A stretch of 64,000 nt of DNA from Alphaproteobacteria bacterium (lineage in GTDB: Bacteria; Myxococcota_A; UBA796; CAJQPC01): the NCBI GenBank assembly GCA_020632795.1, contig JACKEV010000010.1:95127-159126 (forward strand), in the 5' to 3' direction. Both the position numbers and the translations under genes were made by a program. Shown here one piece after another: positions 32,028-56,423 of this stretch; position 1 is the stretch's first letter, and each line of letters begins with the position of its first letter. The notes beneath the pieces were generated by a model. The model was not told the origin of the DNA. It saw only the letters and a list, made by a program, of their open reading frames with translations, and made no database searches.

Positions 32028-32090
32028 GCTCGGCTCCGGCCTTTTCCCCTGGGGGCGGGCGTGCCCGGGCCCGCCCCCTGGAGCCCCGCC

Positions 32091-34848: not shown

Positions 34849-36238
34849 TGTGTCTCGACGACTGCTCATCGCGCTCGCGCTCGCGGCGTCCCCCGCGCTC
34901 GCCCAGGGCAGCAAGGGCCTGACCCGCGCCTCCCAGAGCGCCGCGCCCCTGGGCGTTCGCGCGCTGTCCATCGGGGTGGGCGACTTCCCGAACCTGGAGG
35001 ACCGAGACGACCTGACCACCGCTGAGGCCGACGCCGCCCTGGTCGCGGAAGCCCTGGGTGCTGTGGTGCCCGCAGGGGGCATGACCGTGCTGACCGGCCC
35101 GCAGGCGCGCGCCGAGCGGGTGCGTCAGGAGCTGAGTGCGCTGCTGGACGGCACCCGCGAGGACGAAGCGGCGGTGATCTACTGGGCCACTCACGGCGCC
35201 GCCGTCGGTCGGCGGGGCTACCTCCTGGCGCAGGACAGCGTGCCCGAGGGGCGGCTGCCGTACACCGCCATCGCGCTGACCTGGCTGGGCGAGCAGCTCG
35301 CGAAGAGCCGCGCGGGCCAGGTCCTGCTCTTCCTGGACGCCGTGCATCAGGAGCTGGAGGGCCCAAAGGGCCTGCTGACCGGCCCGGCGTCGCCCATCAA
35401 CCCTCTGCTGGGCGCCCTCGCGGACGCCCGGGAGGGCGTCTTCGTCATGACCTCGAGCAGGCCCCGCGAGTCGATTTCGGGCGGGGGCGGGGCCTGCTCG
35501 GGGCATGGACCCTTCGCCTGCGCCCTGGCCCAGGCGCTCCAAGGGGCCGCCGACCTCGATCAGGACGGGCGGGTGGAGCTGGGCGAGCTGGCCCAGGGCA
35601 TGCCCCGGACCGTGGAGGCCGTCGCCGATGTCCCGCTCACCCCCACCAGCACGGGGCGCTACGTCTCGGATCTGGCGTTTCCTGCGGTGGTGCCGGCGAC
35701 CACGACGGTGGCGCGTGCGACCCGTCCCGAGGCGCTCGAGGTCTGCTTCGAATCCAACGGCCGGGACGTGCCCGCCGACCACATCTTCGCCACCGGTGAC
35801 ACCCTGGCCTTGAGCCTGACCGTGCCCGCCGACGGCCACCTCTACATCATCGCCACCGACGACAGCGGCGCGCTGGTGCCCGCCTTCCCCCTGCCCGGGG
35901 AGTCGAGCCGGGTGTCCCGGGGCGCGACCGTACGCCTTCCGCCACCCGAGCAGCAGGACCCGCTGGTCTTCGTGCCCCCGGCCGAGCCCGAGGAGCTGTA
36001 CCTGCTGTGGTCTGCAGAGCCCATCGCCGAGGGCGCCCAGGTCGCCTCGGCCTGGCGCGCGGCGGTGGAGGGCAGCCAGGTGGCGACCAACACCTCGTAC
36101 GGAGCCAAGGGCCTGATGCGCCCCAGCCAGCAGGTCGACCAGGGGCCGCGGCGGTGCAGCGAGTACACGCCCAAGGGGGATGACGGTCTGTGGGTCATCG
36201 ACCTCGTGCTGAACCACGTCGACGGGAGGGTGCGATGA
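34849..36238 (+). CDS. Caspase-like pseudo-protease (Cys replaced by Val) with a DUF4384-like C-terminus
   Basis: GTG start preceded by GGAGGGAGGGAG. Signal peptide RRLLIALALAASPALAQG. IYWATHGA keeps the His; LFLDAVHQE has Val at the Cys position. The C-terminal PADGHLYIIATDDSGALVPAFP is DUF4384-like. Confidence 0.65.
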
Positions 36239-39493: not shown

Positions 39494-41113
39494 ATGAAAT
39501 CGTGCATCATTCTCGTCTTGCTCAACGGCTGCATCTTGTCCACGCTCAACAAGGACGCCCCGCCATCAGACGGCGGCGACGGCGATGGTGACGGTCAATC
39601 CGCCGTCGAGGCGGATGGTTCGGACTGCGACGACCTTGATCCGACCGTGTACGCCGGGGCACCGGAGATCTGCGACGACGGGAAGGTCAACGACTGCGTC
39701 GCCGAGCCCTGTGAGGCGGCCATCGCCTGCTGGGAGGAGACGACCAGCGAGAACGCTGATGCTTCCGTGATTGTCCCACCGAACGGTTCCGGTCAGGAGC
39801 ACCTCCGCATCGCGTCGGCCGGAGACCTGACCGGCGACGGCCACCGGGACATCCTCATCGGTTCGCCATTCCACGACGAGGACGGCAACGCAAACGTGGG
39901 CGCGGCGTTCCTCGTCGAGGGGCCGCTGTCGGGACAGATCGATCCGGCCACCGACGCGAACCGTCTTGTCGGAGCGGATGCCAACGTGAGGCTGGGCTCC
40001 GCCATCGCCACCGTGGGAGACGTGAACGGGGATGGCCATGACGATGTCCTCGTCGGGGCGTTGAACGACAGCTCCGCAGGCGAAGACGCCGGCGCAGTCC
40101 ACGTTCTGTGTCGGGGTGCCGATTGGACCGGGGCATCGCCCGGCACAGGCGTCAAGCTACTCGGAGAGGCGCCGGAAGACACCTTCGGGCACGCCCTGGC
40201 CGGGCTGGGGGATGGGAACGCCGATGGCCTGAACGACTTTGCGATCGGGGCCTGGTACCATGACGGGGCCAGCATCGACAACAGTGGCGCCGTCTACCTG
40301 ATTCATGGGAGGACTGGCTGGGGAGAAGCTGTCCACCAGCAGGTCTACCCGATCGAAGCGGTGGCCGACGCAAAGGTGTACGGCAAGTCCACGGGGGACG
40401 GCTTCGGCTTCTCCATGACCAATGCAGGGGATACCGACGGCGACGGGGTAGATGAGCTCCTGGTCGGCGCCCCGTTCGAGGATGGCGACGCCCGGCCGGA
40501 TGCAGGCGGGGCCTACCTCGTTCCGAGCGACCTCACCGGTGTTCATGTGGCCTCCGACGGCTTCGTCAGGCTCACCGGCGAGAATCAGGACGAAAACGCC
40601 GGGTTCGCGGTGGCCGGCCCTGGCGACGTCAACGCCGACGGCTATGACGACCTCTTCATCGGCGCAGACTCTGCCGGACCTGCAGGGGAAGGCGCTGCAT
40701 ACCTGCTCTTCGGCCCGACCCAGGGGCGCACGGGCCTGAAGGACGCCGCCACCACCTTCATCGGCGAGCACCCGGACTCCCGGGCCGGGTTCGCCCTATC
40801 CGGGGCCGGAGATGTGGATGGAGACGGCCTGCTGGACCTCCTCGTCGGCGCCAAGTGGGTGGACTACAGGACCACGGGTGTCGGTCGGACCTACCTGATC
40901 CTCTGCCCCTCGACCGGGACGGTGTACCTGTCCGATGTCACCTCCACCATCACCGGTGTCAAGGGGGGTGAGGAGCTCGGCGCATCTGTGGCCGGGGCCG
41001 GCGATCTGAACAACGACGGGCTTGATGACCTCTTGATTGCGGCGTGGGGAGACACAGATGGCTACAATGCTACGGGCGGCGTGGTCCACGTGTTCCACGG
41101 TCGATCCTTCTGA
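39494..41113 (+). CDS. FG-GAP repeat lipoprotein with one MopE-type motif
   Basis: MKSCIILVLLNGC lipobox. Contains GDLTGDGHRDILIGSP, GDVNGDGHDDVLVGA and further FG-GAP units. Confidence 0.7.
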   Translation: MKSCIILVLLNGCILSTLNKDAPPSDGGDGDGDGQSAVEADGSDCDDLDPTVYAGAPEICDDGKVNDCVAEPCEAAIACWEETTSENADASVIVPPNGSGQEHLRIASAGDLTGDGHRDILIGSPFHDEDGNANVGAAFLVEGPLSGQIDPATDANRLVGADANVRLGSAIATVGDVNGDGHDDVLVGALNDSSAGEDAGAVHVLCRGADWTGASPGTGVKLLGEAPEDTFGHALAGLGDGNADGLNDFAIGAWYHDGASIDNSGAVYLIHGRTGWGEAVHQQVYPIEAVADAKVYGKSTGDGFGFSMTNAGDTDGDGVDELLVGAPFEDGDARPDAGGAYLVPSDLTGVHVASDGFVRLTGENQDENAGFAVAGPGDVNADGYDDLFIGADSAGPAGEGAAYLLFGPTQGRTGLKDAATTFIGEHPDSRAGFALSGAGDVDGDGLLDLLVGAKWVDYRTTGVGRTYLILCPSTGTVYLSDVTSTITGVKGGEELGASVAGAGDLNNDGLDDLLIAAWGDTDGYNATGGVVHVFHGRSF

Positions 41114-41345: not shown

Positions 41346-43133
41346 GTGGCGAACGTCATGTCTCCGACGCTGTTTCTCCTCTCCGCAGCCCTCGCTCAAC
41401 AAGAGCATGCCGACACGTCCCAGCGACGCGATCTGGTCCCCCACGACGCCTCGGAGCTGTTCAGCAACAGCGGCAAGCGTTGGGCCATCGTCATCGGCGT
41501 CGACGAATATGAGAACCCGGACATCCAGGATCTGCGCTTCCCGGCGCAGGACGCGAGGAGCTTCGCCGATCGACTGGTGGGGAGCGGCGTCTACGCCGCC
41601 GAGCGGGTCCTGGTCCTCACGCCGGATCAGTCGGACCCCCGGTTGCGGCCCGACAAGAACAATATCCTGAGGGTGCTCCAGCAGCTGAAGGAGTTGGACG
41701 AGTTGGAGTCCGTGGTGTTCTTCTTCTCCGGTCATGGGGCCGCCGAGGAGCTTGAGGACGGTCGGGTCAACTACCTCTTCCCCGAGGATGCGGACGCCGG
41801 ACTGGCGAAGGATACGGCCATCCCCCTCAATAGGATACTATCGGATCTGTACGCGGTGGACGCAAAGAAGCGGTTCATCGTGCTGGACGCCTGCCGGAAC
41901 CAGGTCAGCGTAGGCAAGGGTCTGCAACCGCCAGCCTGGGAGGACCCCCGGTACGCTACCGCCGAGGGCACGTTCATCCTCTACGGTACAGCGTTCGGAA
42001 GCTATTCCTATGAATATGAGGATCTTGGCGCAGGGCTGCTCACCCACCACCTGGTACAGGGCATGGACGGGGCAGCAGACGGACTGGAGCAGTACGACGG
42101 CGTCGTCAGTGCGAGCGAACTCTACCGATACGTCAAGGAGCAGATGGAGAACGAGACCGTCCACCGACGCCACACACAGATCCCGGTACAGGCCGGTGAG
42201 AACTCCGGCGACATCCCCGTCCTGGTCGTCCCCGACTGGCGGGAGCATGTGCTCGCAACCCTCGACGTCACCCCATGCCGGACCGGCGTGCTCGTGCTCG
42301 ACGGCCGGAGCGTCGGCGTGGTCCAGCAAGGCGAGACCGAGCGGATCGAGCGGCTCCAGCCTGGACGCCATGAGCTGGCTCTGGATGGAGAGCACCGCGT
42401 GGTTGTGCTCAAGGAGGGCGAGTATCTGCCCATTCGCATGTGTCGAGAAGCGGCGACGCTGCGCATCACAACCCGCACAGCCGACGGCCGGGAGCTTCAT
42501 GTGCCGGTCAAGGTGGACGGCGCCCGCGTTGGCCGCACGCCCATCAACGTCGACCTGCCGGCCGGGAGTCATGCGCTGGAGTTGGGGTGGTGGCTCACCG
42601 ACACCGTGGACGTACCCGCAGGCGGCGACATCCCGCACGATCTGGTTGTTGAGCACCGGGGCGCCCGGAGCGTCGCTCTCACCGGCGCGGTGCTCCAAGG
42701 GGCCGGCACCGCGCTCGCTGTCGGCGCGCTGTCCCCGACCTGCGGCGCTGTCGCAGCCGGAGACCACCCGGAGGGTTGGGTCGCCGCCAACGCGGTGGGC
42801 TGGGGCACCGCAGGGCTCGGTCTCGGTCTCACGATCGCGGGAGGCCTCCGCTGGCAGGAGCCAGAGGCCTGGCTGGTCGGCGGCGCTGGTCTCGCGGCCT
42901 CTGGCCTCGGCGCGGCCCTGGGCGCGACGGGGATCTCCCACGTGCACGCCGACTCCTCCGGCACGCCCGCCTGCGTTGTCGCAGGCACCACCGATCCGCT
43001 CCGCAGCGCCGCGATCCTGGGGTGGTCGGCGGCTGGCGTGGGGGCGGCTGCGCTGGGGGTCGGGGCGTGGAGAACGCGCTCGGCATCCGTGAACATCGGC
43101 CCCGGCTGGGTCCGAATCAGCGGGCGCTTCTGA
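41346..43133 (+). CDS. Caspase-domain (peptidase C14) protein, extracytoplasmic, dyad intact
   Basis: Signal peptide, then WAIVIGVDEY...FFFSGHGA...IVLDACRNQ. Paralog of 24645..26429. Confidence 0.75.
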   Translation: MANVMSPTLFLLSAALAQQEHADTSQRRDLVPHDASELFSNSGKRWAIVIGVDEYENPDIQDLRFPAQDARSFADRLVGSGVYAAERVLVLTPDQSDPRLRPDKNNILRVLQQLKELDELESVVFFFSGHGAAEELEDGRVNYLFPEDADAGLAKDTAIPLNRILSDLYAVDAKKRFIVLDACRNQVSVGKGLQPPAWEDPRYATAEGTFILYGTAFGSYSYEYEDLGAGLLTHHLVQGMDGAADGLEQYDGVVSASELYRYVKEQMENETVHRRHTQIPVQAGENSGDIPVLVVPDWREHVLATLDVTPCRTGVLVLDGRSVGVVQQGETERIERLQPGRHELALDGEHRVVVLKEGEYLPIRMCREAATLRITTRTADGRELHVPVKVDGARVGRTPINVDLPAGSHALELGWWLTDTVDVPAGGDIPHDLVVEHRGARSVALTGAVLQGAGTALAVGALSPTCGAVAAGDHPEGWVAANAVGWGTAGLGLGLTIAGGLRWQEPEAWLVGGAGLAASGLGAALGATGISHVHADSSGTPACVVAGTTDPLRSAAILGWSAAGVGAAALGVGAWRTRSASVNIGPGWVRISGRF

Positions 43134-44809
43134 TGCTCGCCCCGCTGCTGGTCGCGGCCATCGGCTGCGCGCTCCCCCTTCTCCAGGATCAGGACAACGA
43201 CGGCTTTGGTGTCCTGGTCGACTGTGATGATGCGGACGCCGAACGGCACCCCTTCGCCAACGACGTCGCGCAGGACGGCGTCGACCAGAACTGCGACGGC
43301 GTGGACGGCACGGACGCCGACGGCGACGGCCAGGCGTCCATGGAGACTGGCGGCGAGGACTGCGATGATGCCGATGTCGACGTCTTTTCGGAAGCCCCAG
43401 AGATCTGTGGGGACGGCGTGGTCAACGACTGCGATTCCGACGCCGGGCGGGCCCTGGCGATCTGCGGTCTGTCCGGGGGCCGCTCCGTCACAGAGGCCGA
43501 CGCGCGCATGCTCGGCCGGGTCGACCACAGCAACGCGGGCTCCGCGGCGTCGGCCGTCGGAGACATGGACGGTGACGGGCTACCCGACCTCCTGATCGGC
43601 GCCCCGGTCGACGGTGGAGAGGGGGTGGTCTGGGTGATCTCCGGGATGGCCCGGGGCGATCTCACCCTGGGGACGGACACCATCGGCTCCATCCGCGGCT
43701 TGAGCGGCAACTCCCGCGCGGGGTTCGCCGTCTCAGGGGTCGGGGACATGAACGGCGACGGCTGGGACGACGTCCTGATCGGTTCTCCCTTCCAGGACAC
43801 CCAGGGCGAGGACGACGGCGCCGCGCACCTGGTGCTGGGACCGGTGAGCGGCGACCTGTCGCTGACGGCCGACGCCCACGCCACCCTGGTCGGCGAGAGC
43901 GTCAGCGATCTCGCCGGGTACGCCGTCGCCTCGGCCGGAGACATCGACGGGGACGGCCAACCCGACGTGCTGGTCACGAGCCCCGGCGACGATCAAGGTG
44001 GAGACAGCGCGGGCGCGACCTACCTGCTCCCCGGACCGCTGGAGGGGACCCTCTCGCTGGCCGTCGCCTTCAAGCTCTCCGGCGAAGAAGCTGGCGACCA
44101 GGCGGGTCACGCCGCCGCAGCCGTCGGCGACGTCGATGGTGACGGGGTGGACGACCTGCTCATCGGGTCATACCTGGCGGGTTCCGACGACCGCGGAGCG
44201 GCCTACCTCATTCTGGGCCCCGTCAGGAACTCCTTCGGCCTGCATGACGCGGATGCAAAGCTCATCGGTGACCAGGACGACTGCGGGGCCGGGCACAGCG
44301 TCGCAGCCGCCGGGGACGTGAACGGTGACGGTCTGGCCGATATCCTGGTCGGCGCGCCCTACATGGACCGGGACAGGCAGTGGGCCACCGGTGCGGCCTA
44401 TTTGGTATTCGGCCCGGTCGGCTACGGAGGTCGGCTGGCCTCCGCCCAGGCAACCCTCACGAGCAGCCGAGAAGGGTCGCTCGCAGGGTGGTCCGTGGAC
44501 AGCGCCGGGGACGTGGACGGGGACGGCCACGGCGACCTCCTCGTGGGTGCTCTGACCGACAGCCGGGCCGGGCCGGAGGCCGGAGCGGTCCACCTCGTCC
44601 GCGGCCCAGTCATCGGGCACGTCGAGCTGGCGGACGCGGACGGTCGGTTCACCGGAGCGCAGGCCTACGGGCGGCTGGGAAAGGCCGTCGCCGGGGTCGG
44701 TGATGTCGACGGAGACGGCTTCGACGACGTCCTGCTCGGTGCCCATGCTTCCGGCGAGGACCACCCCTTCCCCGGCGCCGCGTACCTGCTGCTGGGCGGC
44801 GGACTGTAG
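43133..44809 (+). CDS. MopE-motif + FG-GAP repeat lipoprotein
   Basis: ATG overlaps the caspase stop (TGATG at 43131-43135). MLAPLLVAAIGC lipobox; multiple FG-GAP units. Confidence 0.7.
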   Translation: MLAPLLVAAIGCALPLLQDQDNDGFGVLVDCDDADAERHPFANDVAQDGVDQNCDGVDGTDADGDGQASMETGGEDCDDADVDVFSEAPEICGDGVVNDCDSDAGRALAICGLSGGRSVTEADARMLGRVDHSNAGSAASAVGDMDGDGLPDLLIGAPVDGGEGVVWVISGMARGDLTLGTDTIGSIRGLSGNSRAGFAVSGVGDMNGDGWDDVLIGSPFQDTQGEDDGAAHLVLGPVSGDLSLTADAHATLVGESVSDLAGYAVASAGDIDGDGQPDVLVTSPGDDQGGDSAGATYLLPGPLEGTLSLAVAFKLSGEEAGDQAGHAAAAVGDVDGDGVDDLLIGSYLAGSDDRGAAYLILGPVRNSFGLHDADAKLIGDQDDCGAGHSVAAAGDVNGDGLADILVGAPYMDRDRQWATGAAYLVFGPVGYGGRLASAQATLTSSREGSLAGWSVDSAGDVDGDGHGDLLVGALTDSRAGPEAGAVHLVRGPVIGHVELADADGRFTGAQAYGRLGKAVAGVGDVDGDGFDDVLLGAHASGEDHPFPGAAYLLLGGGL

Positions 44810-44848: not shown

Positions 44849-46525
44849 TTGTCCCCTGCCCTCTTCCTGCTCGTCGCCTGTGGGGCCGATCTGATCCGAG
44901 ACACAGACGCCGACGGGTACATCGATGCCCTGGACTGCCAGCCCTACAACCCTTCGGTCAACCCCAGCGCGAACGACGCGACAGGGGACGGCGTCGATCA
45001 GAACTGTGACGGTGTCGATGGCACCGACGTTGACGGGGACGGCCAAGCCTCCGTGGAGTCCGGGGGAGAGGACTGTAATGATTGGGATCCACTGGCCTAC
45101 ACAGGCGCGTACGAGACTTGCGAGGACAGGATCGTATCGGATTGCGCGCTGACCATCCGCGAGGCGAGCGCCCTCTGTTGGGGGGATCTGAGCTTGGCGG
45201 AGGCGCACTTCAGAGTGTACGGCGAGATGCCCTCTGAAGAGATCGGGGTATCCGTCGCGGGCGCCGGAGATGTCAACGGGGACGGTTTCAATGACCTGAT
45301 CCTGGGGTCCTGGGGCGACACACCCAACGGGCCCTGGTCCGGCTCCTCCCATGTGGTCTATGGACCCTTGACCGGATCAGCGGATATCAGCGCGACCAGC
45401 GACGCGCGACTGGAGGGCGAGGCCGAGGGCGACTTCGCAGGTCACCGCGTGGCCGGTACAGGCGACTTCAATGGGGACGGCTTCGACGACGTCCTCGTCG
45501 GAGCCCATGACAACGACGAGGGAGGCGCGCACGCCGGCGCCGCCTACCTCATCCTGGGCCCGGTGTCGGGAACAATGGGCCTCGCGGACGCCCCGCTCAA
45601 GCTCCTGGGTGAGCGCGCTGGCGCGTGGGCCGGCTGGGCCGTCGCCCCCGCGGGGGACGTGAACGACGACGGCTACCAGGACATCCTGGTCGGTGCCACC
45701 GCGACGGCGAGCGAAGCCGACGGCCTGGGCGCCGTCCACCTCATCCTCGGCCAGGAATTGAGCACCGACGAGGTTCGCTCCCTCTCGGAGGCCGACGCCA
45801 CCCTGCGCGGCGTCACCTGGAACGATGCGACGGGCGTGTCTACCACAGGTGGGGGTGATCTCAATGGAGATGGCCTGGACGATCTCCTGGTGGGCGCGAA
45901 CGAGGTGCTTCCTGGCGGCCCTGGCGTCGTCTACGCTGTCATGTCCCCGGTTTACGGCGACTTCGACCTCCGAGATGCCGACGCCACCCTCCGCGGAGAA
46001 TCTCCCTACGACACCGTCGGCGAGTCCGTGGCCAGCGCTGGCGACGTAGACGGCGACGGAAACGCAGACGTGCTCATCGGTGCCCCCCAGGGCGTCGACC
46101 CGCACTTGGGCCCCGGCCGCGCGTATCTGGTCCTGGGCCCTCTGTGGGGAGAGCGTCCTCTGGACACCGCCGACGCGGTGTTGGTGGGTGAAGCCTACGG
46201 GGACCGAGCAGGCTATTCGGTGGCTGCGGCTGGCGATGTGAATGGGGATCAGCACGCCGATCTTCTTGTCGGCACGTACCAGGCGCTGAGAGCGGACGAC
46301 CCACCTGGTCTGGCCTACCTCGTACTTGGGCCGGTCAGCGGACATGTGGATCTTGGAGAGGCCGACGGCCGTCTCGTCGGAGAGTCCACGCACGGCCGCG
46401 CCGGCTTCTCGGTGGCCAGCGCGGGTGACGTCAACGGAGACGGCCTCGACGACCTCCTGATCGGTGCAATCGGTGAGCGGGAATTCGCAGGCGCAGCCTA
46501 CGTCTTCCACGGCAGGAGCTACTGA
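44849..46525 (+). CDS. MopE-motif + FG-GAP repeat lipoprotein
   Basis: TTG start with AAGGAG 7 nt upstream. LLVACG lipobox; FG-GAP units throughout. Confidence 0.7.
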   Translation: MSPALFLLVACGADLIRDTDADGYIDALDCQPYNPSVNPSANDATGDGVDQNCDGVDGTDVDGDGQASVESGGEDCNDWDPLAYTGAYETCEDRIVSDCALTIREASALCWGDLSLAEAHFRVYGEMPSEEIGVSVAGAGDVNGDGFNDLILGSWGDTPNGPWSGSSHVVYGPLTGSADISATSDARLEGEAEGDFAGHRVAGTGDFNGDGFDDVLVGAHDNDEGGAHAGAAYLILGPVSGTMGLADAPLKLLGERAGAWAGWAVAPAGDVNDDGYQDILVGATATASEADGLGAVHLILGQELSTDEVRSLSEADATLRGVTWNDATGVSTTGGGDLNGDGLDDLLVGANEVLPGGPGVVYAVMSPVYGDFDLRDADATLRGESPYDTVGESVASAGDVDGDGNADVLIGAPQGVDPHLGPGRAYLVLGPLWGERPLDTADAVLVGEAYGDRAGYSVAAAGDVNGDQHADLLVGTYQALRADDPPGLAYLVLGPVSGHVDLGEADGRLVGESTHGRAGFSVASAGDVNGDGLDDLLIGAIGEREFAGAAYVFHGRSY

Positions 46526-48312
46526 TGACATCCCGAACCGCGGCCCTTCATCTGCACTCCCTCATTCTTCTCTGCATCGGATGCGGTCCGGATCGAGACC
46601 ACGACGGGTGGGCAGACCCGGCGGACTGCGAGCCCGAGCGCTACAGCATCCACCCTGGCGCCGACGACCTGACCCAGGACGGCATTGACCAGGACTGCGA
46701 CGGCGTAGACGGCACAGACCTGGACGGTGACGGACAAGCCTCCCTGAGGAGCGGTGGCGCTGACTGTGATGATCAAGACGCCACCGTCTACGCGGGCGCC
46801 GAAGACATCTGCCTCAACGGCGTGAGGGAGGACTGTGACAAGCGCGACGCGCTACCTGGCCCGCACAAGCGCTTCTCCCGGCCGTTGACCTTGAGCGAGC
46901 AAAGCCTGCTGCTCCCTGGCTTGGAGGCCTACGGCTTCCACGGCCGCTCCGCGAGCGGCGCTGGAGACGCCGACGGAGACGGGGTGGCCGGAGATGTACT
47001 GATCGGCGCGTTCAAGGTGGACGGATCCGCCACAGACAGCGGTGCGGCCTACCTCTACAGCGCTGTAGACCTGCGACAGGGCATCGCGTCACCGAGGACC
47101 ACCATCGTCGGAGAGAACGCGCACGATCTGGCCGGGTTCGCGGTGGCCGGTCTCGGAGACGTCAACGGGGACGGCACCGACGATCTGCTCATCAGCGCGC
47201 ACGCCTCGAGCATGGCCGCCGAAGGGGCCGGTGCTGTCTACCTGATCCTCGGGCCGGTGACCGGTGCGCAGTTGGACCTCGCGAACGCTCCCGTCAAGCT
47301 CCTTGGCCAGGACAGGTCCATGAACGTCGGCAGTCATCTGGCGAGCGCCGGAGATTTCAACGGCGACGGGCTTCAGGATCTTGCGGTCGACTCGGTATCC
47401 GGCATCAGATCCTACGGTGACGTGGCGGTGCTGTTGGGTTCGGAGGACTGGCACCCCGATGATCCCCTCACCATCGGCTTCTCGGAAGCGGAGCTGAGCA
47501 TCCGGGGCGACCTCTCCTGGCGGGAATCCGGAGCATGGTTCGCGCTGGCGTCGGCCGGGGACATCAACGGGGATGGGCTGGACGACCTGCTCGTGGGCGC
47601 CACAAAGAGCGACAAATGCAGGGAGGCCGCCTGGGCTGGTGCGGCGGCCTTGTTCCTGGGCGACGAGCGCGCTGGGGGCCTGCTGTCCTGGCGCGACGCC
47701 GCCCTCCGAATGGAGGGCGTGAGCCCCGGAGACTGCGCCGGCTCGGCCGTGGCCGCAGGCGACCTGGACGGCGACGGCTGGCCGGAGTTGGTGATCGGCG
47801 CTGAACGTGTCCACAGGGACGATCCCAAACAGTACAACGGGGCCGTCTACGTGGTGGACCTGGAAGAGGAGGGAATGAACACGGAGGGGCCGTTGGCGAT
47901 GACCTTGGACGACGCGACCGCGACCTGGTACGGCGAGCCGGGCGACGGGTCAGCGTCAGCGTTGCCCGGCGACGCTGCTGGGAAGTCCATCGCTGCGGTG
48001 CGACGCTGCGACGAGCGAGCAGACCTCCTGATCGGACGGCCAAAGGGTGGCGTCGACTCCGAAGGCGCGGCCAGCCTCGTCACCTACAGCGGACCGGGCA
48101 CCTTCAACCTCACCGACCGAGGTGTTGACCTGCTCGGAAACACCGGCAGTTCCGAGACCGGCAACCATGTGGCGAGCGCGGGCGACGTTGACGGCGACGG
48201 CTGGGAAGACCTGCTCATCGGCGCACACCAGCTCCGGGGTGACCTGGACGGGGACGGTTCCTTTGGGGACAACGCGGTGGGCGGCGCCTACCTGCTGCTG
48301 ACGGGTCCGTGA
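46525..48312 (+). CDS. MopE-motif + FG-GAP repeat lipoprotein
   Basis: ATG overlaps the previous stop (TGATG at 46523-46527). LILLCIGC lipobox; FG-GAP units. Confidence 0.7.
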   Translation: MTSRTAALHLHSLILLCIGCGPDRDHDGWADPADCEPERYSIHPGADDLTQDGIDQDCDGVDGTDLDGDGQASLRSGGADCDDQDATVYAGAEDICLNGVREDCDKRDALPGPHKRFSRPLTLSEQSLLLPGLEAYGFHGRSASGAGDADGDGVAGDVLIGAFKVDGSATDSGAAYLYSAVDLRQGIASPRTTIVGENAHDLAGFAVAGLGDVNGDGTDDLLISAHASSMAAEGAGAVYLILGPVTGAQLDLANAPVKLLGQDRSMNVGSHLASAGDFNGDGLQDLAVDSVSGIRSYGDVAVLLGSEDWHPDDPLTIGFSEAELSIRGDLSWRESGAWFALASAGDINGDGLDDLLVGATKSDKCREAAWAGAAALFLGDERAGGLLSWRDAALRMEGVSPGDCAGSAVAAGDLDGDGWPELVIGAERVHRDDPKQYNGAVYVVDLEEEGMNTEGPLAMTLDDATATWYGEPGDGSASALPGDAAGKSIAAVRRCDERADLLIGRPKGGVDSEGAASLVTYSGPGTFNLTDRGVDLLGNTGSSETGNHVASAGDVDGDGWEDLLIGAHQLRGDLDGDGSFGDNAVGGAYLLLTGP

Positions 48313-48495
48313 AGTTGCCCCGACCTCAGCCCCATCGAGATGACCATCTCCAAGATCAAAGCGCGCTTGGGAGGCATGAAGGCTCGAATCCTGGACCTGC
48401 TGGAGACCGTACTCCGAAGCGCCTGGGCAGCAATCACAACAGATGCAGGCGCGGCCTGGTTTCGGCACCACGGCTACCCGATGGCATCAAGTTGA
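48313..48495 (+). pseudogene. IS630-family transposase C-terminal remnant
   Basis: The frame after the FG-GAP stop reads SCPDLSPIEMTISKIKARLGG...AWAAITTDAGAAWFRHHGY. This resembles the conserved IS630 C-terminus (SPDLNPIE...WF.HCGY). There is no upstream DDE domain. Confidence 0.45.
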
Positions 48496-48511
48496 CGGTG
48501 GAATCCTGTAT

Positions 48512-48769
48512 TCAACAATACCTTCCGTAGACACAAATCACTTCCGCTCCCCTGACGTCTGCCGATTGGCAATAACATATGCCTGCGTCAACGTTAAGGT
48601 TATACAAACAAACCTCGGCACACACGTCCAGCGGCAACGTACCCTCGACCCCACCCGTCACGATTCCCTCCTCCTCCAACCCTTCGGTCGACAGATAGAC
48701 GGAGGCCGTCTCCCTGACGCCGAACTTGCACAACCATCCATCCCCAATTTCAAGGGAACCGTCATGCAT
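48512..48769 (-). CDS. Small Cys-rich protein, family copy A (no signal peptide, possibly decayed)
   Basis: WLCKFGVRETASVYLSTEGLEEE...GVEGTLPLDVCAEVCLYNLNVDAGICYCQSADVRGAEVICVYGRYC. The Cys pattern is shared with copies B-D. Confidence 0.4.
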   Translation of the reverse strand: MHDGSLEIGDGWLCKFGVRETASVYLSTEGLEEEGIVTGGVEGTLPLDVCAEVCLYNLNVDAGICYCQSADVRGAEVICVYGRYC

Positions 48770-48835
48770 ACGACAAGGAACGACCGGAATGTCATACGAT
48801 GAGCCCTCTTGTCCCAGTTCAAGACCATCATCTCC
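48770..48835. repeat. Duplicated 5' region of Cys-rich gene copy A (partner at 51612-51680)
   Basis: CATACGATGAGCCCTCTTGTCCCAGTTCAAGACCATCATCTCCATCC versus CGTACGATGAGCCCACTTGTCCCAACTCATGATGTTCACCTCCATC. Confidence 0.55.
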
Positions 48836-49034
48836 ATCCTTTATTCAGATCGCTCGGTCGCGTGCTCGTAGCGTGCCATGCAGGGCATGGACAGGCGGTT
48901 CGACTGGCGGGGATGGCCGGCCAGGGGCCACAGCAGCCTGAGGAGAGGTCTACACATCTGGAGCAGATGACCCCCACCCCACCGCGCGCGACTGCTCGCA
49001 TCCAAGGGTCCTTTCATGCGTCTCGCTCCACCTT

Positions 49035-49131
49035 CGGGTCCTTCGCAGTATACCCGCTCCAACGGGGCGTCGTCGCCTGCGGATCCGCTGTTCTCATCGG
49101 GGACAGGCCCGCGCTCTTCGGGTCAGACCCC
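49035..49131. repeat. About 90-bp repeat, copy 1 (partner at 52023-52109)
   Basis: CGGGTCCTTCGCAGTATACCCGCTCCAACGGGGCGTCGTCGCCTGCGGATCCGCTG.TCTCATCGGGGA.AGGCC.GCGCTC.TCGG is about 85% identical to the second copy. Confidence 0.6.
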
Positions 49132-49190
49132 GGGATTCACAGTCCCGGCGATCAAGCGCCCGAATACTCCACGAATCATGGTTCTCGAAG

Positions 49191-49526
49191 TCAGCAGATT
49201 TCTTCAACGTAGCAATCAAAATCAGCCCCCCCATCATCTGTCAAGAAAAATGCGCACTCCGTGGTCTCAATATTTGCGTGCTCTATACAAATTGACCGAC
49301 AAACATCACCAGGTCCCGTACCCTCTGGGACCACAAATTCATAATCTATCGTCTCCAATTCCTCCGCCGACAGGTGAATGGTACTATACCTGGGTGGTCC
49401 CCAACCACAACAGGCTCCATTCGAAAATAGCGAGACCATCCACGTCATCCAGATTTGCCAATGAAAACGGGGCCGTGTCCTGACACTTCGACTTGATGTG
49501 TCGTTCGTTGACGAAATCCTGATCAT
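49191..49526 (-). CDS. Small Cys-rich protein, family copy B (most diverged)
   Basis: GACCGWG...YSTIHLSAEELETID...DVCRSICIEHANIETTECAFFLTDDGGADFDCYVEEIC. Cys and SAEEL positions are conserved with copy D despite DNA divergence. Confidence 0.4.
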   Translation of the reverse strand: MIRISSTNDTSSRSVRTRPRFHWQIWMTWMVSLFSNGACCGWGPPRYSTIHLSAEELETIDYEFVVPEGTGPGDVCRSICIEHANIETTECAFFLTDDGGADFDCYVEEIC

Positions 49527-49547
49527 CGTCTACCTCCGCCCACCTCT

Positions 49548-49868
49548 CTACCACACCGCATCCCGACACAACACTGCCGCCTCTCCAACCCACCACGGCA
49601 TGAACCGCTGCCAGTCCTCCGCCCGCAGGAACCCCAACACCAGGGGCGCTGAGGCCACGCCCGGAGGCACCGGAAGGCTGGCGGTCCAACGAAATCCCCG
49701 CTCGATGCGGTCCAGGGCGTCGGCGAACACCGCGGCCCACGCCAGATACTCGTTCCATGCGTCGCGCTCCACGATCCGGTGTTGGAAGAAACGTACCGCC
49801 TCCCGCAGGGTGTTGGCATCCCCCTGAGTGATCCCCTCATCTCCCAAGCCCCCCATGTCGTGGCGCAT
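49548..49868 (-). CDS. Hypothetical protein; its 5' end overlaps the proposed IS left terminus
   Basis: A 106-aa ORF with host-like GC; no motif recognised. Confidence 0.25.
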   Translation of the reverse strand: MRHDMGGLGDEGITQGDANTLREAVRFFQHRIVERDAWNEYLAWAAVFADALDRIERGFRWTASLPVPPGVASAPLVLGFLRAEDWQRFMPWWVGEAAVLCRDAVW

Positions 49869-51168
49869 CGCTCTTCCGAAACCCCGTTGACCTGGGCGTC
49901 CTTGAGGATCATGCTGCCGGCTCCCGACACCATGGAGCCCACATGTCCTCGTCCTCTTCCCGCCGCCGCGCCCGTGAGGCGGGCGCTCGCCGCAAGGCCA
50001 TCTCTCGCGCGCAGGCGATGTCCGCCAAGCAGGTCCACGGCTTCGTGGACGAGTTGTTCGGCGAGGACCTGCACGCCAAGCGGGTCGGCACGCTGGCGGA
50101 TGGGACGTTGGGGGTGCTGCACGCCGCGTCGCTGGGCATCCACGCCATCGGCCGGGGTCTCGCGTCGGCCAAGGGTCTTTCGGACAAGCACGCGGTCAAG
50201 CAGGTGGACCGCTGCATCGGCAACGAGGCCATCGACGTGGAGCCGCTGCAGACCCGGCTGGTGAAACGTCTGCTCGCAGGCCGGGAGGAAGCCACGGTGA
50301 ACTTGGACTGGACGGAGTTCGACAAGGACGACCAGTCCACGCTGATGCTGAGTCTGCAGACCTCGCACGGTCGCGCCCAGCCCCTGATGTGGAAGACCGT
50401 GGTGAAGTCCGAGCTGGCCGGCCAGATGAACGACCACGAGGACGCCCTGCTGACGCGCTTCGCAGCGGCGGTACCCGAGGGCGTCCGCGTGACCGTCGTC
50501 GCAGACCGAGGCTTCGGCGATCAGGCGCTCTTCGACTTCCTGTCCGAGTTGGGCTTGGACTACATCATCCGCATTCGAGGGTGCATCCACGTCACCGACA
50601 AGACTGGGGAGACGAAGCGCGCCGACGCCTGGGTCGGCAAGGGGGGCCGCCTCCGCGCCCTGCCCGAGGCCCGGGTCACAGACGACAAGACACCCGTGGG
50701 TGTGGTCGTCGTCGTGCGCGACAAGGGCATGAAGGACACCTGGTGCCTCGTCGCCAGCGACCCCGAGTGGCGAGGCGCCGACGTCAAGCGCCGATACGGC
50801 AAGCGCTTCTCCTGCGAGGAGACCTTCCGCGACCTCAAGGACCCTCGCTTCGGCTTCGGACTCCGTCACACCCGCCTCTCCAGCCCCTTGCGTCGCGATC
50901 GCCTCATCTTGCTGGCCGTCCTCGCACAGGCACTCCTCACCTTGCTCGGGGAGGCCGGCGAGGCCGTCGGCCTCGACCGCGTCCTCAAGACCAACACCTC
51001 CAGACGACGCACCATGTCCCTCCTTCGACAGGGGATGCGGTGGTACGAACGCATCGGGACCATGCCCGAGGAGTGGCTCCTCGCGCTCATGACCTCCTTC
51101 GAGAGGATGCTGCGGGAAGACACTTTGTTTCAGGGATTTCTCGGGCTGGAGGCAGAATGAGGGGATGC
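49817..51168 (+). mobile_element. IS4-family insertion sequence (about 1.35 kb)
   Basis: Imperfect terminal inverted repeats: GCATCCCCCTGA / ATCCCCTCA at 49816-49839 versus TGAGGGGATGC at 51158-51168. It encloses the DDE transposase ORF. Confidence 0.45.
49943..51160 (+). CDS. IS4-family DDE transposase
   Basis: VVADRGFGD (second-Asp region) and YGKRFSCEETFRDLKD (a Y-R-E-K-type motif) are typical of IS4-family transposases. Confidence 0.8.
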   Translation: MSSSSSRRRAREAGARRKAISRAQAMSAKQVHGFVDELFGEDLHAKRVGTLADGTLGVLHAASLGIHAIGRGLASAKGLSDKHAVKQVDRCIGNEAIDVEPLQTRLVKRLLAGREEATVNLDWTEFDKDDQSTLMLSLQTSHGRAQPLMWKTVVKSELAGQMNDHEDALLTRFAAAVPEGVRVTVVADRGFGDQALFDFLSELGLDYIIRIRGCIHVTDKTGETKRADAWVGKGGRLRALPEARVTDDKTPVGVVVVVRDKGMKDTWCLVASDPEWRGADVKRRYGKRFSCEETFRDLKDPRFGFGLRHTRLSSPLRRDRLILLAVLAQALLTLLGEAGEAVGLDRVLKTNTSRRRTMSLLRQGMRWYERIGTMPEEWLLALMTSFERMLREDTLFQGFLGLEAE

Positions 51169-51356
51169 TTCAGGACGCCACATCCTCTCTGAAAAGGGCC
51201 TCAGCACCCCCGACTCGTTCCGTTTGGGTGACAGTGGTTTCCAAAAAAACCACTACACAATCAGCACCAACACATGGCGATTCAAGAACGTGCAGGAGGT
51301 GGCCCGACCAAGTCGGAAGAGGCCGAGACTACTCGGTAACATCCGGGTACTTTCAC

Positions 51357-51683
51357 TCAACAATACCTTTCGTAAACACAGGTGATCTCCGCTCCCGAAT
51401 GATCCGCAGAGTGGTAGCAACACAACTCCGTGTCGATACCAATATATTCATCACATACACTCACGCAAACTTCCAGCGGCAAGGTTCCTTCAACCCCAGT
51501 CGGAGCAATTTCGTCTTGCTCCAGTTCCTCGGTAGACAGGAAGAAGGTGCTCGTTTCCCGAACGCCGAACTTGCAGCAACCATCCGTCCCCATGTTCAGG
51601 GGAATCGTCATGCATACGATAAGGAACGACCTGATTGTCGTACGATGAGCCCACTTGTCCCAACTCATGATGTTCACCTCCAT
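51357..51683 (-). CDS. Small Cys-rich protein, family copy C
   Basis: MTIPLNMGTDGCCKFGVRETSTFFLSTEELEQDE...VCVSVCDEYIGIDTELCCYHSADHSGAEITCVYERYC. Its upstream 60 bp duplicate the region upstream of copy A. Confidence 0.5.
   Translation of the reverse strand: MEVNIMSWDKWAHRTTIRSFLIVCMTIPLNMGTDGCCKFGVRETSTFFLSTEELEQDEIAPTGVEGTLPLEVCVSVCDEYIGIDTELCCYHSADHSGAEITCVYERYC
51612..51680. repeat. Duplicated 5' region of Cys-rich gene copy C
   Basis: See 48770-48835. Confidence 0.55.
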
Positions 51684-51709
51684 CGACTACGTGCGCTGTA
51701 TGTGTTCCA

Positions 51710-51973
51710 TCAACAGTACCGTTCATAATAACAGGTGACGTCCGCGCCACCGTCGGCGGTCCTGATGTACACGCAATCGTCTGAAGTGATGTGCACATAA
51801 TCTCCACACAACACCTCGCAAACGTACGGTGGAGGAACGCCATTGTCGTCGTTGAATCTATTGTCAACTTCGTCCAGCTCTTCAGCCGAGAGGTAGGCTG
51901 TCTTCTCCTCCCATACTCCGAACTTGCAGCACCCCGCCAGCACGACGGTCATCAGGCCCCATGCGATGGCGAC
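51710..51973 (-). CDS. Small Cys-rich lipoprotein, family copy D (start at MVAIAWG)
   Basis: MVAIAWGLMTVVLAGCCKFGV has a canonical LAGC lipobox. The mature protein is about 65 aa with 8 Cys and ends ...CYYERYC. Confidence 0.5.
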   Translation of the reverse strand, partial: VAIAWGLMTVVLAGCCKFGVWEEKTAYLSAEELDEVDNRFNDDNGVPPPYVCEVLCGDYVHITSDDCVYIRTADGGADVTCYYERYC

Positions 51974-52022
51974 CATCCTGGGTGTTCCTTCCATCCTCAA
52001 CCTCCTGACGACCTGTCCTGGT

Positions 52023-52109
52023 CGGGTCCCTCGCAGCATACCCGCTCCGACGGGGCCTCGTCGCCCGCGGATCCGCCGATCTCATCGGGGAGAGACCTGC
52101 GCTCCTCGG
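52023..52109. repeat. About 90-bp repeat, copy 2, immediately upstream of Cys-rich lipoprotein gene D
   Basis: See copy 1. It lies 50-135 bp upstream of the MVAIAWG start of copy D. Confidence 0.6.
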
Positions 52110-52210
52110 CTGGATCTCAAGAGTGCCGGGTGAACCGGGATCTGTGTACTGTGCGTCACGATGACCTCACACAGAACTCAAATCAAACTCAGTCGCTGGC
52201 CCCTCCCCCC

Positions 52211-54505
52211 TCAACACGCCCGCGTCGGATCCCCCCGCACCCTCGGCGCGTCAAATGCCTCCTCCCGCGGATCCCCGTCCGCGTAGAACGCCTGGATCGC
52301 CGACCAGGCCTCGCTCGCCGTCTCCACCACGGTGAAGAGCCCGGCGTCGGGGTCGTCGATCGTGCCCTCGTCCGCCAGAAAGCCCGCGTCGAAGCAGCCC
52401 TTCCAGAACGCCGTGCCCACCAGCACCACCGGGATGCGGGGCATCTTGCCGGTCTGGATGAGACACAATGCGTCGAACAGCTCGTCCAGGGTGCCGAAGC
52501 CCCCGGGGAAGGCCACCAGGGCCCGGGTGCGCATCAGGAAGTGCATCTTGCGCAGGGCGAAGTAGCGGAACTGGAAGCACAGGCCCGGCGTGATGTAGGG
52601 GTTGGGGAACTGCTCCCGGGGCAGGGTGATGTTCAGGCCCACGGAGGGCGCGCCCAGCTCCCAGGCGCCCCGGTTGGCGGCCTCCATCACGCCGGGGCCG
52701 CCGCCGGTAACCACCACCGCGCGCACGTCGGGGGCGATGTCCTCGGTGGCGACCAGGCGCCCGAGGGCGCGGGCCTCTTCGTAGTACATCGCCTTGGCGG
52801 CCAGGCGCTGGGCCACCGCGACGGCCCGCTCGTCCCCGGACTCCTTGGCGGCGTCCAGCCGGCGGCGGGCCTCGGCGGCACCCCGCACGCGGGTGCCCCC
52901 GAAGACCACGACCGTGTCGGATATCCCCGCCGCCTCCATGGCCAGGTGCGGCTTGAGGTACTCCAGCATCAGCCGCGCCGGGCGCAGGGCGTCCTGGTCC
53001 AGGAAGTCCACGTCCTGGTCGGCGCGCAGGTAGGCGGGGCTCTCCATCAAGGCCTGGACCCGGGCGGCCTCCGCCTCGGACAACCCGGCCGGCAGCGCGG
53101 GCGCGGGGGCCTCCACCGAGGGCAGCCGGGGCACCGGGGCGGACTCGGACAGGCTCACCGTCTGCCCATAGGACGGGATGCGCACCGTCCAGCCGAAGTG
53201 GTCGCGGATCTTGCGGCGCAGGGCGTCGGCGGCGTGGGGCTCGCCGTGGTTGAGCATCACCGTGCGGGGCGCCCCGGGCAGCCCGCGCAGCCACGCCAGC
53301 AGCTCGGCCTGGTCGGCGTGGGCCGAGAGGCCGTCGATGCGCGCGACGTGACACTGCACCGGGATGTCCCGCCCGTGGACCCGCACCTCGGGGGCTCCGC
53401 CGAGGAGGGCGGCGCCCCGGGTGCCCGGCGCCTGATAGCCCACGAAGAGGATGGTGTTCTGCTCGCCCGGCGCCAGGCGCTTGAGGTGGTGCAGCACCCG
53501 CCCGCCGGTGAGCATGCCGCTGGCCGAGACCAGCACGTAGGGGCCGGGCTGGTCGGCCAGGGCCATGGACTCGTCGGCGCTGTGCAGGAGCCGGGTCTGC
53601 CGCCACGACGACGCGGCCTCCTCTTCCGAAAGCCGGTGCTGATCGAGGTTCTTGAGGTACAGCTCCGTGGTGTCCACCGCCATCGGGCTGTCGAGGTAGA
53701 TGGGGATCGGCGGGATCTCCTCGCGCTGCTGGAGCAGCTCCAGGGCGTAGAGCAGCACCTGGGAGCGCCCCACCGCGAACGCCGGCACCAGCAGCACGCC
53801 ACCACGCTCGGCCGTCTCGTTGACCACCTGGGCCAGCCGCTTGAGCACGTCCTCGTCGCCGTGCAGGCGGTCGCCGTAGGTGGACTCCAGCACGAGGTGG
53901 TCCACCGGCGCATCGGGGTGGGTCGGAGGCCGCATGATCAGGTCGTCGGGCCGCCCCAGGTCCCCGCTGAACAGCACGCTGCCGTCCTTGTCGCGCAGGA
54001 TCGCCATCGACGCGCCCAGGATGTGCCCGGCGGGCAGCAGGGTGGCGCTCAGGCCCTGGCCCAGGTCCACCGGCGCGCCCCAGCCCACCGGCTTGAGGTG
54101 CGCCAGCGCGGCGCGGGCCTCGTCCTGGGTGTAGAGGGGCAGCGCGGGGTCGTGCCGGGACCAGCCCTCGCGGTTGGCCTGCTCAGCGTCCAGCTCGAAG
54201 ATGTGGGCGGCGTCCACCCACAACAGCGCGCAGAGGTCGGCGGTGGCCTGGGTGCAGTACACCGGCCCCTTGAAGCCCGAGCACACCAGCCGGGGGATCC
54301 AGCCGCTGTGGTCGAGGTGGGCGTGGGTCAGCACCACCGCGTCGATGGTCCGGGCCCGGACCGGCAGGTCCTCCCAGTTGCGGAGCCGCAGCTCCTTGAA
54401 GCCCTGAAACAAACCGCAGTCCACCAGGACCCGCCGCCCGCCGGATTCGACGAGGGTTCGGGAGCCGGTGACCGTCTCTGCGCCGCCGAGGAATTGAAGT
54501 CGCAT
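52211..54505 (-). CDS. Fusion protein: beta-CASP MBL-fold metallo-hydrolase (RNA/DNA-nuclease-like) plus a LOG-family (TIGR00730) domain
   Basis: Start MRLQFLGGAETVTGS. HAHLDHSGW is an MBL motif; the beta-CASP region follows. The C-terminal GGGPGVMEAANRGA...PGGFGTLDELFDAL is the LOG signature. Continuous in one frame. Confidence 0.65.
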   Translation of the reverse strand: MRLQFLGGAETVTGSRTLVESGGRRVLVDCGLFQGFKELRLRNWEDLPVRARTIDAVVLTHAHLDHSGWIPRLVCSGFKGPVYCTQATADLCALLWVDAAHIFELDAEQANREGWSRHDPALPLYTQDEARAALAHLKPVGWGAPVDLGQGLSATLLPAGHILGASMAILRDKDGSVLFSGDLGRPDDLIMRPPTHPDAPVDHLVLESTYGDRLHGDEDVLKRLAQVVNETAERGGVLLVPAFAVGRSQVLLYALELLQQREEIPPIPIYLDSPMAVDTTELYLKNLDQHRLSEEEAASSWRQTRLLHSADESMALADQPGPYVLVSASGMLTGGRVLHHLKRLAPGEQNTILFVGYQAPGTRGAALLGGAPEVRVHGRDIPVQCHVARIDGLSAHADQAELLAWLRGLPGAPRTVMLNHGEPHAADALRRKIRDHFGWTVRIPSYGQTVSLSESAPVPRLPSVEAPAPALPAGLSEAEAARVQALMESPAYLRADQDVDFLDQDALRPARLMLEYLKPHLAMEAAGISDTVVVFGGTRVRGAAEARRRLDAAKESGDERAVAVAQRLAAKAMYYEEARALGRLVATEDIAPDVRAVVVTGGGPGVMEAANRGAWELGAPSVGLNITLPREQFPNPYITPGLCFQFRYFALRKMHFLMRTRALVAFPGGFGTLDELFDALCLIQTGKMPRIPVVLVGTAFWKGCFDAGFLADEGTIDDPDAGLFTVVETASEAWSAIQAFYADGDPREEAFDAPRVRGDPTRAC

Positions 54506-54536
54506 CCCATCCTGGTACCCGAAAGGGGCCGGCGGT

Positions 54537-56423
<1,887 letters not shown>

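Follow-up and report, generated by a model that had tools for sequence, protein, structure and literature searches.

Diverged paralogs for small, Cys-rich and probably exported proteins in a low-GC island of a Myxococcota-like genome

In a 64,000-nucleotide (nt) stretch of contig JACKEV010000010.1, referred to here as the window and derived from a metagenome-assembled genome (MAG) labelled Alphaproteobacteria, two convergent genes enclose a gap (positions 48,313 to 52,210) in which an initial annotation had noted an IS630 remnant, an IS4-family element and four diverged open reading frames (ORFs) on the minus strand for small Cys-rich proteins, designated below as copies A to D. The question raised by this locus is whether the repeated ORFs are genes and, if so, what kind of protein they would encode. 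From their sequences, it can be regarded as reasonably secure that the ORFs are genuine genes and form a paralog family restricted to one lineage. As to the kind of protein, the reading tentatively favoured is that the products are lineage-restricted exported envelope proteins, stabilised by disulfides and partly anchored by lipid, that probably serve as binding or inhibitor modules and not as bacteriocins.

All four minus-strand ORFs were found as first described, with a common spacing of Cys residues. The family alignment comprises 73 columns, of which 16 are invariant (C2, G5, L14, S15, E17, L19, G31, P34, V37, C38, C42, C53, G62, A63, C67 and C73), and the domain contains six conserved Cys after an N-terminal Cys-Cys. 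A profile hidden Markov model (HMM) of the family, when searched against the six-frame translation of the window, recovered exactly four loci with E-values between 1e-33 and 1e-37 (A, 5.5e-33; B, 1e-34; C, 2.9e-36; D, 1.5e-37) and the next match had E = 1, a result far beyond chance. The mature length, first estimated at about 65 amino acids (aa), has to be revised to a domain of 72-73 aa, or 76 aa in a fifth copy, E, described below.

Conservation of the family was proposed to lie at the protein level even where the DNA has diverged. By the Nei-Gojobori method, the proportion of synonymous differences (pS) was 0.67-1.0, saturated in most pairs, against a proportion of nonsynonymous differences (pN) of 0.25-0.49; the ratio of nonsynonymous to synonymous substitution rates (dN/dS), for the pairs where it was measurable, was 0.19 for A-C and 0.22 for C-D, and in all ten pairs the third-position differences exceeded those at first and second positions. 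In the sense frame, the five paralogs share 40% mean pairwise identity with a BLOSUM62 score of +2.1 per site and zero stops, whereas the best-conserved antisense frame of the same five carries 19 stops and the most open one reaches only 22% identity. Antisense coding was rejected on these grounds, since the antisense frames carry stops or show low identity and the minus frame alone is open in all copies. The comparison of the two strands that had been recommended as a check of the family thus came out for the minus frame, with dN/dS of about 0.2 and no better conservation on the opposite strand. The conserved Cys spacing and the excess of pS over pN altogether bear out the conservation at the protein level, and purifying selection is on the minus frame only.

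Copies D, C and B are each preceded by a ribosome-binding site, AGGAGG located 6 nt before the ATG at 51994 for D, GGAGGTG located 6 nt before the ATG at 51668 for C, and GGAGGT located 5 nt before the ATG at 49526 for B. Copy D is identical to the NCBI protein P0001, annotated as H6739_20765. The fifth intact copy, E (P0004, H6739_14975), was identified on another contig of the same MAG, where it faces unrelated genes of the opposite strand within an otherwise native-looking high-GC region. The three genes adjoining E (Logan contig L001, 340-4450, minus strand; 319, 335 and 703 aa) belong to no Pfam family except for a weak EF-hand-like match in the 703-aa ORF, and L001 ends 60 nt upstream of E, just within the conserved 5' element described below. 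For copy C, the start assigned by NCBI (84 aa) drops the signal peptide, the Logan gene call gives the full precursor of 103 aa, and the ORF spans 51357-51683. Copy B, the most diverged paralog, matched no protein in either of the two database searches described below, and the Logan gene caller placed a different gene (L005 257-469) over its 5' part. The locus shows how small low-GC genes can be missed or mis-started in high-GC MAGs.

Another Logan contig, L004 (run SRR15882951), is 98% identical overall and its family genes are identical to those of the window. All its 22 differences are in the terminal 58 nt (L004 1-62 corresponds to window 52562-52624), and one of these mismatches would create a stop codon. 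Strain variation was rejected because the mismatches are packed at the contig end, a pattern that suggests either a chimeric end or sequence from a LOG-domain paralog.

Table 1. Features identified between the two convergent native genes (positions are those of the window)
Feature	Position	Strand	Remark
FG-GAP/MopE repeat protein gene	ends 48312	+	native left flank, convergent
IS630-like fragment	48316-48498	+	59 codons plus stop, 4 nt past the stop of the FG-GAP gene
Copy A (C-type)	48512-48837	-	frameshifted: signal part 48731-48837, domain 48515-48730, stop 48512-48514
psi-F, sixth gene remnant (D/E-type)	48841-49017	-	start codon and degenerate signal-peptide region
psi-F including its upstream element	48841-49121	-	5' remnant only
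Upstream element copy 2	49034-49121	-	87.5% identical to copy 1
Copy B	49191-49526	-	111-aa precursor, 21 nt after orf106
orf106	49548-49822	-	ORF fragment of native composition, directly upstream of B
IS4-family element	49823-51174	transposase +	1352 bp
Copy C	51357-51668	-	103-aa precursor, 26 nt after D
Copy D	51710-51994	-	94-aa precursor, canonical lipobox VLAG/CC, 7 Cys
Upstream element copy 1	52022-52109	-	in front of D
Gene for beta-CASP metallo-hydrolase fused to LOG domain	ends 52211	-	native right flank, convergent

Relatives of the family were sought in protein, genome and metagenome collections. A word-indexed search of 5.8 billion protein clusters, run once with the alignment of the full-length sequences and once with that of the mature domains (the latter at E <= 10), returned only D, C, A and E themselves. 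An exhaustive hmmsearch of 1.84 billion representatives gave one extra match, P0005, which was rejected as a repetitive eukaryotic protein with its score derived from six copies of a 21-residue match. Scanning GTDB genomes, JGI metagenomes and IMG/VR contigs by pattern and by tblastn yielded no relative, the Pfam, NCBIfam, PADLOC and PDB sequence libraries gave no match to the family domain, and PHROGs gave matches only at E >= 0.048 over short stretches. No link to viruses appeared as an IMG/VR relative, a BFVD fold match or a PADLOC match. The search was extended through the neighbouring beta-CASP/LOG protein (848 aa), which has no relative above 58% identity; a GTDB scan with this protein found nothing, and the flanks of three of its orthologs carry no family member by HMM or Cys pattern. 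Since the host lineage itself is isolated, the lack of homologs may partly reflect sparse sampling. The search for homologs proposed in the initial annotation was productive inside the MAG, where it led to copy E, and gave none outside the same organism; with no homolog in any library searched, the description of this family as the least explainable in the window is justified.

The signal sequences offer a first indication of where the products might act. In every copy, a positively charged n-region is followed by a hydrophobic stretch (best 10-aa Kyte-Doolittle window 1.6-2.6). The lipobox was scored as [LVI]-[ASTVI]-[GAS]-C, with the Cys among about the first 35 residues, behind a basic n-region and a hydrophobic stretch free of charged residues; a lipobox definition (L-[AST]-[GA]-C) and the sorting rules for position +2 are available in the literature (PMC3222651). 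Copies D (VLAG/C) and E (ALAG/C), both at residue 22, agree with both the PROSITE PS51257-type and the classic lipobox patterns, and the LAGC lipobox first seen in D is therefore genuine as a sequence motif. Copies C (GTDG/C) and A (GMDG/C), each with Asp at -2, fail both patterns, and so does B (SNGA/CC), with Asn at -3 and the Cys at residue 39. The suggested inspection of secretion signals thus gave signal-like N-termini for all copies and a canonical lipobox for D and E only. With the lipobox behind a hydrophobic core and an n-region that is short and basic, D and E resemble generic lipoproteins of the Sec/signal peptidase II pathway, whereas C, A and B depart from these at the lipobox, and the mature domain could be assigned to none of the known lipoprotein families. 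Lipid anchoring of D and E is credible from these motifs, and these two products would be membrane-anchored rather than released. The residue at +2 that directs retention is Lys in M. xanthus and Asp in E. coli (PMC3222651); at this position the family has Cys, which is not a described sorting residue. Since it is neither Lys nor Asp, the D-type proteins (D, E and the lost psi-F), once lipidated on Cys+1, would be tethered to a membrane that is likely the outer one.

The number of Cys, first given as 7-8, is confirmed and tracks the signal type, as D, E and B have 7 (one lipid-acceptor plus six) and C and A have 8. The 8-Cys C-type would fit a cleavage without lipidation in which the extra Cys is paired. 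The domain, of about 8 kDa, is strongly acidic (pI about 4.05; 11-20 Asp plus Glu against 2-5 Lys plus Arg). AlphaFold2 models made with D first (pLDDT 81.0, pTM 0.67) and with B first (pLDDT 81.6, pTM 0.66) have the same topology, consisting of beta1, alpha1, alpha2 and a beta2-beta3 hairpin, with the CxxxC motif (C38, C42) on helix 2, C53 on strand 2, and C67 and C73 on strand 3. Comparison of these models with known folds gave no significant structural match, including to any defensin or toxin. The density of Cys (7-8 in about 73 residues) together with many carboxylates, and the Pfam 'Cu-binding_MopE' putative metal-binding motif on the neighbouring FG-GAP proteins, could also be taken to mean periplasmic metal- or redox-active proteins, in which the Cys are thiolate ligands or redox centres. 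Such a role is very improbable, for the domain contains no CxxC or CxC motif (Cys spacings 35, 3, 10, 13, 5), has no conserved His or Met clusters and matches no metal-binding family, and an exported protein whose conserved Cys, the lipid acceptor aside, are even in number is better explained by disulfides.

The same features bear on the first proposal for this family, that it encodes bacteriocin-, toxin- or signal-like peptides. Bacteriocin or secreted toxin loci carry adjacent immunity, export or maturation genes, and the peptide is typically cationic or amphipathic. Small, Cys-rich and signal-bearing products whose CxxxC is predicted to lie on a helix, a trait of cysteine-stabilised alpha-beta peptides, could in principle be secreted antimicrobial, toxin or signalling peptides of bacteriocin or defensin type that are freed after signal cleavage; the C-type copies, with no canonical lipobox, could be released, and cis-defensins are known from myxobacteria (PMC11561630). 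The products are acidic, however, and the lipoboxes of D and E imply tethering. The cis-defensin pattern, C-X(2,18)-C-X3-C-X(2,12)-C-X(4,17)-C-X-C (PMC11561630), was false for all five sequences as a regular expression, since the spacing from the Cys-Cys to the next Cys is 35-38 residues and the last pair is Cx5C instead of CxC. No fold match to a defensin or toxin was significant, genes for immunity, ABC exporters or modification enzymes were not found nearby, and neither PADLOC nor PHROGs gave a match. A secreted peptide of this type is thus quite unlikely, and so is a role as diffusible antimicrobial; the initial proposal found no positive support and is held less likely than envelope proteins of the kind outlined at the beginning.

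The history of the locus could be read from the non-coding DNA and the damaged copies. The two upstream elements constitute an 88-nt repeat, and the 3' part of this repeat also matches the DNA upstream of E on L001. The duplication that had been noticed upstream of each pair was confirmed for this one segment; what lies between B and A is, in addition, the 5' end of a lost sixth gene of the D/E type, psi-F, of which the 5' region could be aligned with those of D and E (shared ATG context, 2-nt gap). No frame of psi-F gave an HMM match to the domain, and the mature domain is lost. In copy A, the frame of the signal peptide, opened by the ATG at 48837, does not continue into the domain, one base being missing at about 48731 relative to TGCTGC in C. 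The signal-peptide region of A, MEMMVLNWDKRAHRMTFRSFLVVCMTVPLKLGMDGC, is homologous to that of C, and the two copies are 73.5% identical over 332 nt, signal peptide included. As the same deletion was present in Logan contig L005 (run SRR12358676), which is 100% identical over 2.1 kb, the frameshift is not specific to the assembly of the window, and because of this 1-nt frameshift between signal peptide and domain, copy A is probably a pseudogene. Since the upstream repeat runs into a decayed D/E-like start and signal, the ancestral unit would have been an upstream element, a D-type gene and a C-type gene in tandem, which was duplicated; the second unit would then have decayed, with loss of the body of psi-F and the frameshift of A, and the IS630 and IS4 elements would have been inserted later in the same non-essential gap between the convergent genes.

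A perfect 10-nt palindrome, GCGGATCCGC, is situated at 49079-49088 and 52067-52076, the same place in both upstream elements, and might be an operator site. In addition, the element in front of psi-F contains GGGTATACTGCGAAGGACCCGA and that in front of D contains GGGTATGCTGCGAGGGACCCGA, and a TATGCT/TATACT box is present. Without constraint, DNA at dS of about 1.65 would be expected to retain roughly 33% identity, far less than the 87.5% observed; the element could be constrained as a promoter or operator, or it could be homogenised by gene conversion. No Rfam family and no significant RNA structure (z -1.0 to +0.5) were found for the element, and a scan for sigma-70 promoters and terminators was uninformative. 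A degenerate 22-mer of the element was used to scan JGI metagenomes, and the single match, inside a beta-propeller gene, was rejected as a chance match.

The contrast between this conserved 5' DNA and the diverged domains raises an alternative, namely that the family consists of variable surface lipoproteins, with a conserved cassette for expression and lipidation joined to mature domains that serve as alternative surface tags, for example toward phages, predators or kin. In its favour, D, E and psi-F share 72-88% identity in the 5' element and signal region, as compared with 43-56% and saturated dS for the mature coding part, the non-coding identity is far above the neutral expectation, the family is multi-copy and partly tandem beside mobile elements, and D and E carry canonical lipoboxes. 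Neither an invertase or recombinase nor inversion sites were seen in the island, however, and instead of a single expression site, there is a separate ribosome-binding site for every intact copy and a separate upstream element for every D-type copy. The mature domains keep a conserved core and are neither repeat-based nor hypervariable, and in the one strain at hand no switching or variation is observable. This alternative is therefore considered unlikely.

The composition of the locus led to another alternative. The GC content, about 0.70 outside, drops to about 0.54 at 48500-49500 and drops again at 51000-52000; GC at the third codon position (GC3) is 0.49-0.70 in the five family genes, lowest in copy B (0.49), which is the lowest-GC paralog, against 0.81-0.94 in the neighbouring genes and the IS4 transposase. 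No tRNA gene was found in the window and no tandem repeat in the island region. The name of accessory island is well deserved, as a low-GC patch with four paralogs, an IS4 element and an IS630-like fragment is situated between convergent native genes. The family genes might then be functionless, decaying cargo of a past horizontal transfer from an unsampled lower-GC donor or a mobile element. The low GC3, the frameshift in one copy and the reduction of another to a stub, the IS4 and IS630 debris in the same gap, and the lack of relatives in the close and distant genomes sampled are as expected for such cargo. In contrast, three copies of the window and E are intact, with start codon, signal and all conserved Cys, and D, C and B have a ribosome-binding site; in every pair, pN falls far short of pS; the paralogs, old as judged from the saturated dS, are still open; and E stands in native-looking surroundings. 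Dead cargo is thus an improbable explanation for the family. The saturation of dS also implies that the mutational bias of the genome should have pushed such old genes toward high GC, so that either the copies had diverged in a source of lower GC before their arrival, or something keeps them richer in AT.

The favoured interpretation, that of exported envelope proteins, may be formulated in the following way. Each gene would direct the synthesis of a Sec-type signal followed by a 72-76-residue acidic domain that starts with Cys-Cys and is predicted to take a compact beta-alpha-alpha-beta-beta fold, presumably held by three disulfides among the six conserved Cys (Cys2, Cys38, Cys42, Cys53, Cys67 and Cys73). 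The tethered D-type would be accompanied by the C-type (C and A), which may be substrates of signal peptidase I and remain in solution. A small, rigid envelope module of this sort might act as a tethered inhibitor, an immunity-like protein or a decoy, with an incoming or self-made protein as the target, either in the periplasm or at the cell surface, and the variable loops, residues 22-34 and 43-52, might set the specificity. The lipidation, the pairing of disulfides, the cellular location and the role in binding or inhibition are what we infer from the sequences.

A number of points weigh against this interpretation. Three of the five signals are without a canonical lipobox, so that the term lipoprotein is secure only for D and E. 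No candidate partner gene for a toxin, a protease or a secretion system is adjacent to the family genes. The AlphaFold2 models were built on five-sequence alignments, the arrangement of disulfides, maybe C2-C73 plus bonds from C38 and C42 to C53 and C67, is a guess, and one strain only was recovered, from three sequencing runs. A bolder version, in which lipid-anchored D-type and soluble C-type proteins of a new disulfide-rich alpha/beta fold are produced as matched pairs from tandem genes under a GCGGATCCGC-bearing 5' control element, and constitute a recognition or protection system of the envelope not described before, which a deep-branching Myxococcota-like lineage would have acquired from an unsampled source of lower GC, is rather doubtful and would be a surprise.

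The two mobile elements of the island differ in preservation. The element that the two pairs of family genes were said to flank belongs to the IS4 family, since the transposase (49943-51160) exceeded the cut-off of the NF033591 model (219.8 bits, cut-off 152) and matched Pfam DDE_Tnp_1 with E = 8.9e-12, and this DDE transposase is flanked by imperfect terminal inverted repeats of 18-19 nt at 49823-49840 and 51157-51174, CCTGAGTGATCCCCTCAT and CCTGAAGCATCCCCTCAT, with 15 positions matching. It is similar to IS4-family insertion sequences in the type of transposase, the terminal inverted repeats and the length of about 1.35 kb, but is different from these with respect to the target-site duplication, which was not found, since the flanking sequences, GGCATCCC on the left and ACGCCACATCC on the right, have no common direct repeat; the flanks may be rearranged. 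Logan contigs break at the ends of the element. On its left side, orf106 belongs to an ORF of 49548-49868 (GC3 0.81) that runs into the inverted repeat, its 5' end being interrupted by IS4, and no match to orf106 was found in Pfam, NCBIfam, PHROGs or PADLOC. After removal of the element in silico, one frame stays open across the orf106 junction (on the 51175-51356 side) for about 50 more codons, so that the insertion may have cut in two a gene transcribed together with B. The IS630 remnant is less certain. Every tblastn match of the fragment with an annotated gene beneath it carries the name 'IS630 family transposase', and these matches, to plasmids, cover 90-98% of the query at 41-45% identity, but they are weak (E 6e-3 to 4, none at E <= 1e-3) and no Pfam or NCBIfam model was matched. 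That the fragment is a C-terminal remnant of an IS630-family transposase is therefore a plausible but weak assignment.

On the right flank, the gene at 52211-54757 (minus strand) is an 848-aa ORF, 764 aa as annotated, with an MBL/beta-CASP/RMMBL nuclease-like module and a C-terminal LOG/SLOG domain (TIGR00730, 'lysine decarboxylase-like'). The nuclease module is common to thousands of database proteins and the fusion is found in many; the best NCBIfam match is the type VII CRISPR Cas14 model, at 360 bits against a cut-off of 800. Named relatives of this protein are from Deltaproteobacteria and Nannocystis, and because of these relatives, the label of the MAG as Alphaproteobacteria is probably wrong. 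On the left flank, four consecutive FG-GAP paralogs with N-terminal 'Cu-binding_MopE' motifs (plus strand; 39494-41113, 42776-44809, 44849-46525 and 46525-48312) and, among them, a protein with a caspase domain (Peptidase_C14) and PEGA at 41346-43133 make up a large block of exported repeat proteins beside the island. Together with an S9 peptidase and a Lon-like protease, these genes render the neighbourhood rich in exported proteins and proteases. The Lon_C-like protease is at 30040-31467, a DUF4423 protein at 32061-33104, and DUF4384 proteins at 28508-29887 (minus) and 34622-36238 (plus); most of the large ORFs of the window are without a Pfam domain. Beside the family genes, where the neighbours are IS4, the IS630 remnant, orf106, the FG-GAP gene and the beta-CASP/LOG gene, no gene for immunity, maturation or export was identified.

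If the proteins are made, they would represent a new small-protein fold family and a further case of lineage-specific exported 'dark matter' in uncultured, predator-like bacteria. The locus is in addition a natural experiment on the switching of signal type, as it includes lipobox and non-lipobox paralogs of one domain, a co-varying number of Cys and a duplicated unit that is still in the course of decaying. Small exported proteins of orphan type occur commonly in MAGs, and the family alone opens no long-standing question.

Among known systems, the cis-defensins and other cysteine-stabilised alpha-beta peptides, including the myxobacterial class II of xanthusin type (PMC11561630), are also small, signal-bearing and present in Myxococcota-like bacteria, and also have six structural Cys with CxxxC on a helix packed against a beta-sheet, a feature that for the present family comes from predicted models. 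The family domain is different from these peptides in being about twice as large, with one more strand and one more helix ahead of that carrying CxxxC, in ending with Cx5C and not conserving the GXC gamma-core, and in being acidic and not cationic; a significant fold match is also lacking.

A second group for comparison is that of small envelope lipoproteins. Immunity and inhibitor proteins, such as those for T6SS amidases or lipases, lysozyme inhibitors like MliC, and Llp of phage T5, are small, exported, often lipid-anchored and often disulfide-bonded, and orphan immunity gene arrays are often composed of diverged tandem paralogs near mobile elements with atypical composition. The family has the same layout of small, exported, partly lipid-anchored tandem paralogs near mobile elements, and is distinguished by the lack of sequence, profile or fold similarity to these proteins and of an adjoining effector gene or secretion system in the window. 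In mycoplasmas, the multi-copy lipoprotein families Vsp, Vlp and Vsa have a 5' non-coding region and signal peptide better conserved than the mature part. The present family follows the same pattern, but its mature part is a conserved folded domain and not based on tandem repeats, site-specific recombinase genes or inversion sites were not seen in the island, and the host is a diderm of high GC. Nothing at the locus yet points to a new kind of system; the small-protein family is new, but its general kind, lineage-specific, exported, partly lipid-anchored and Cys-rich, is familiar.

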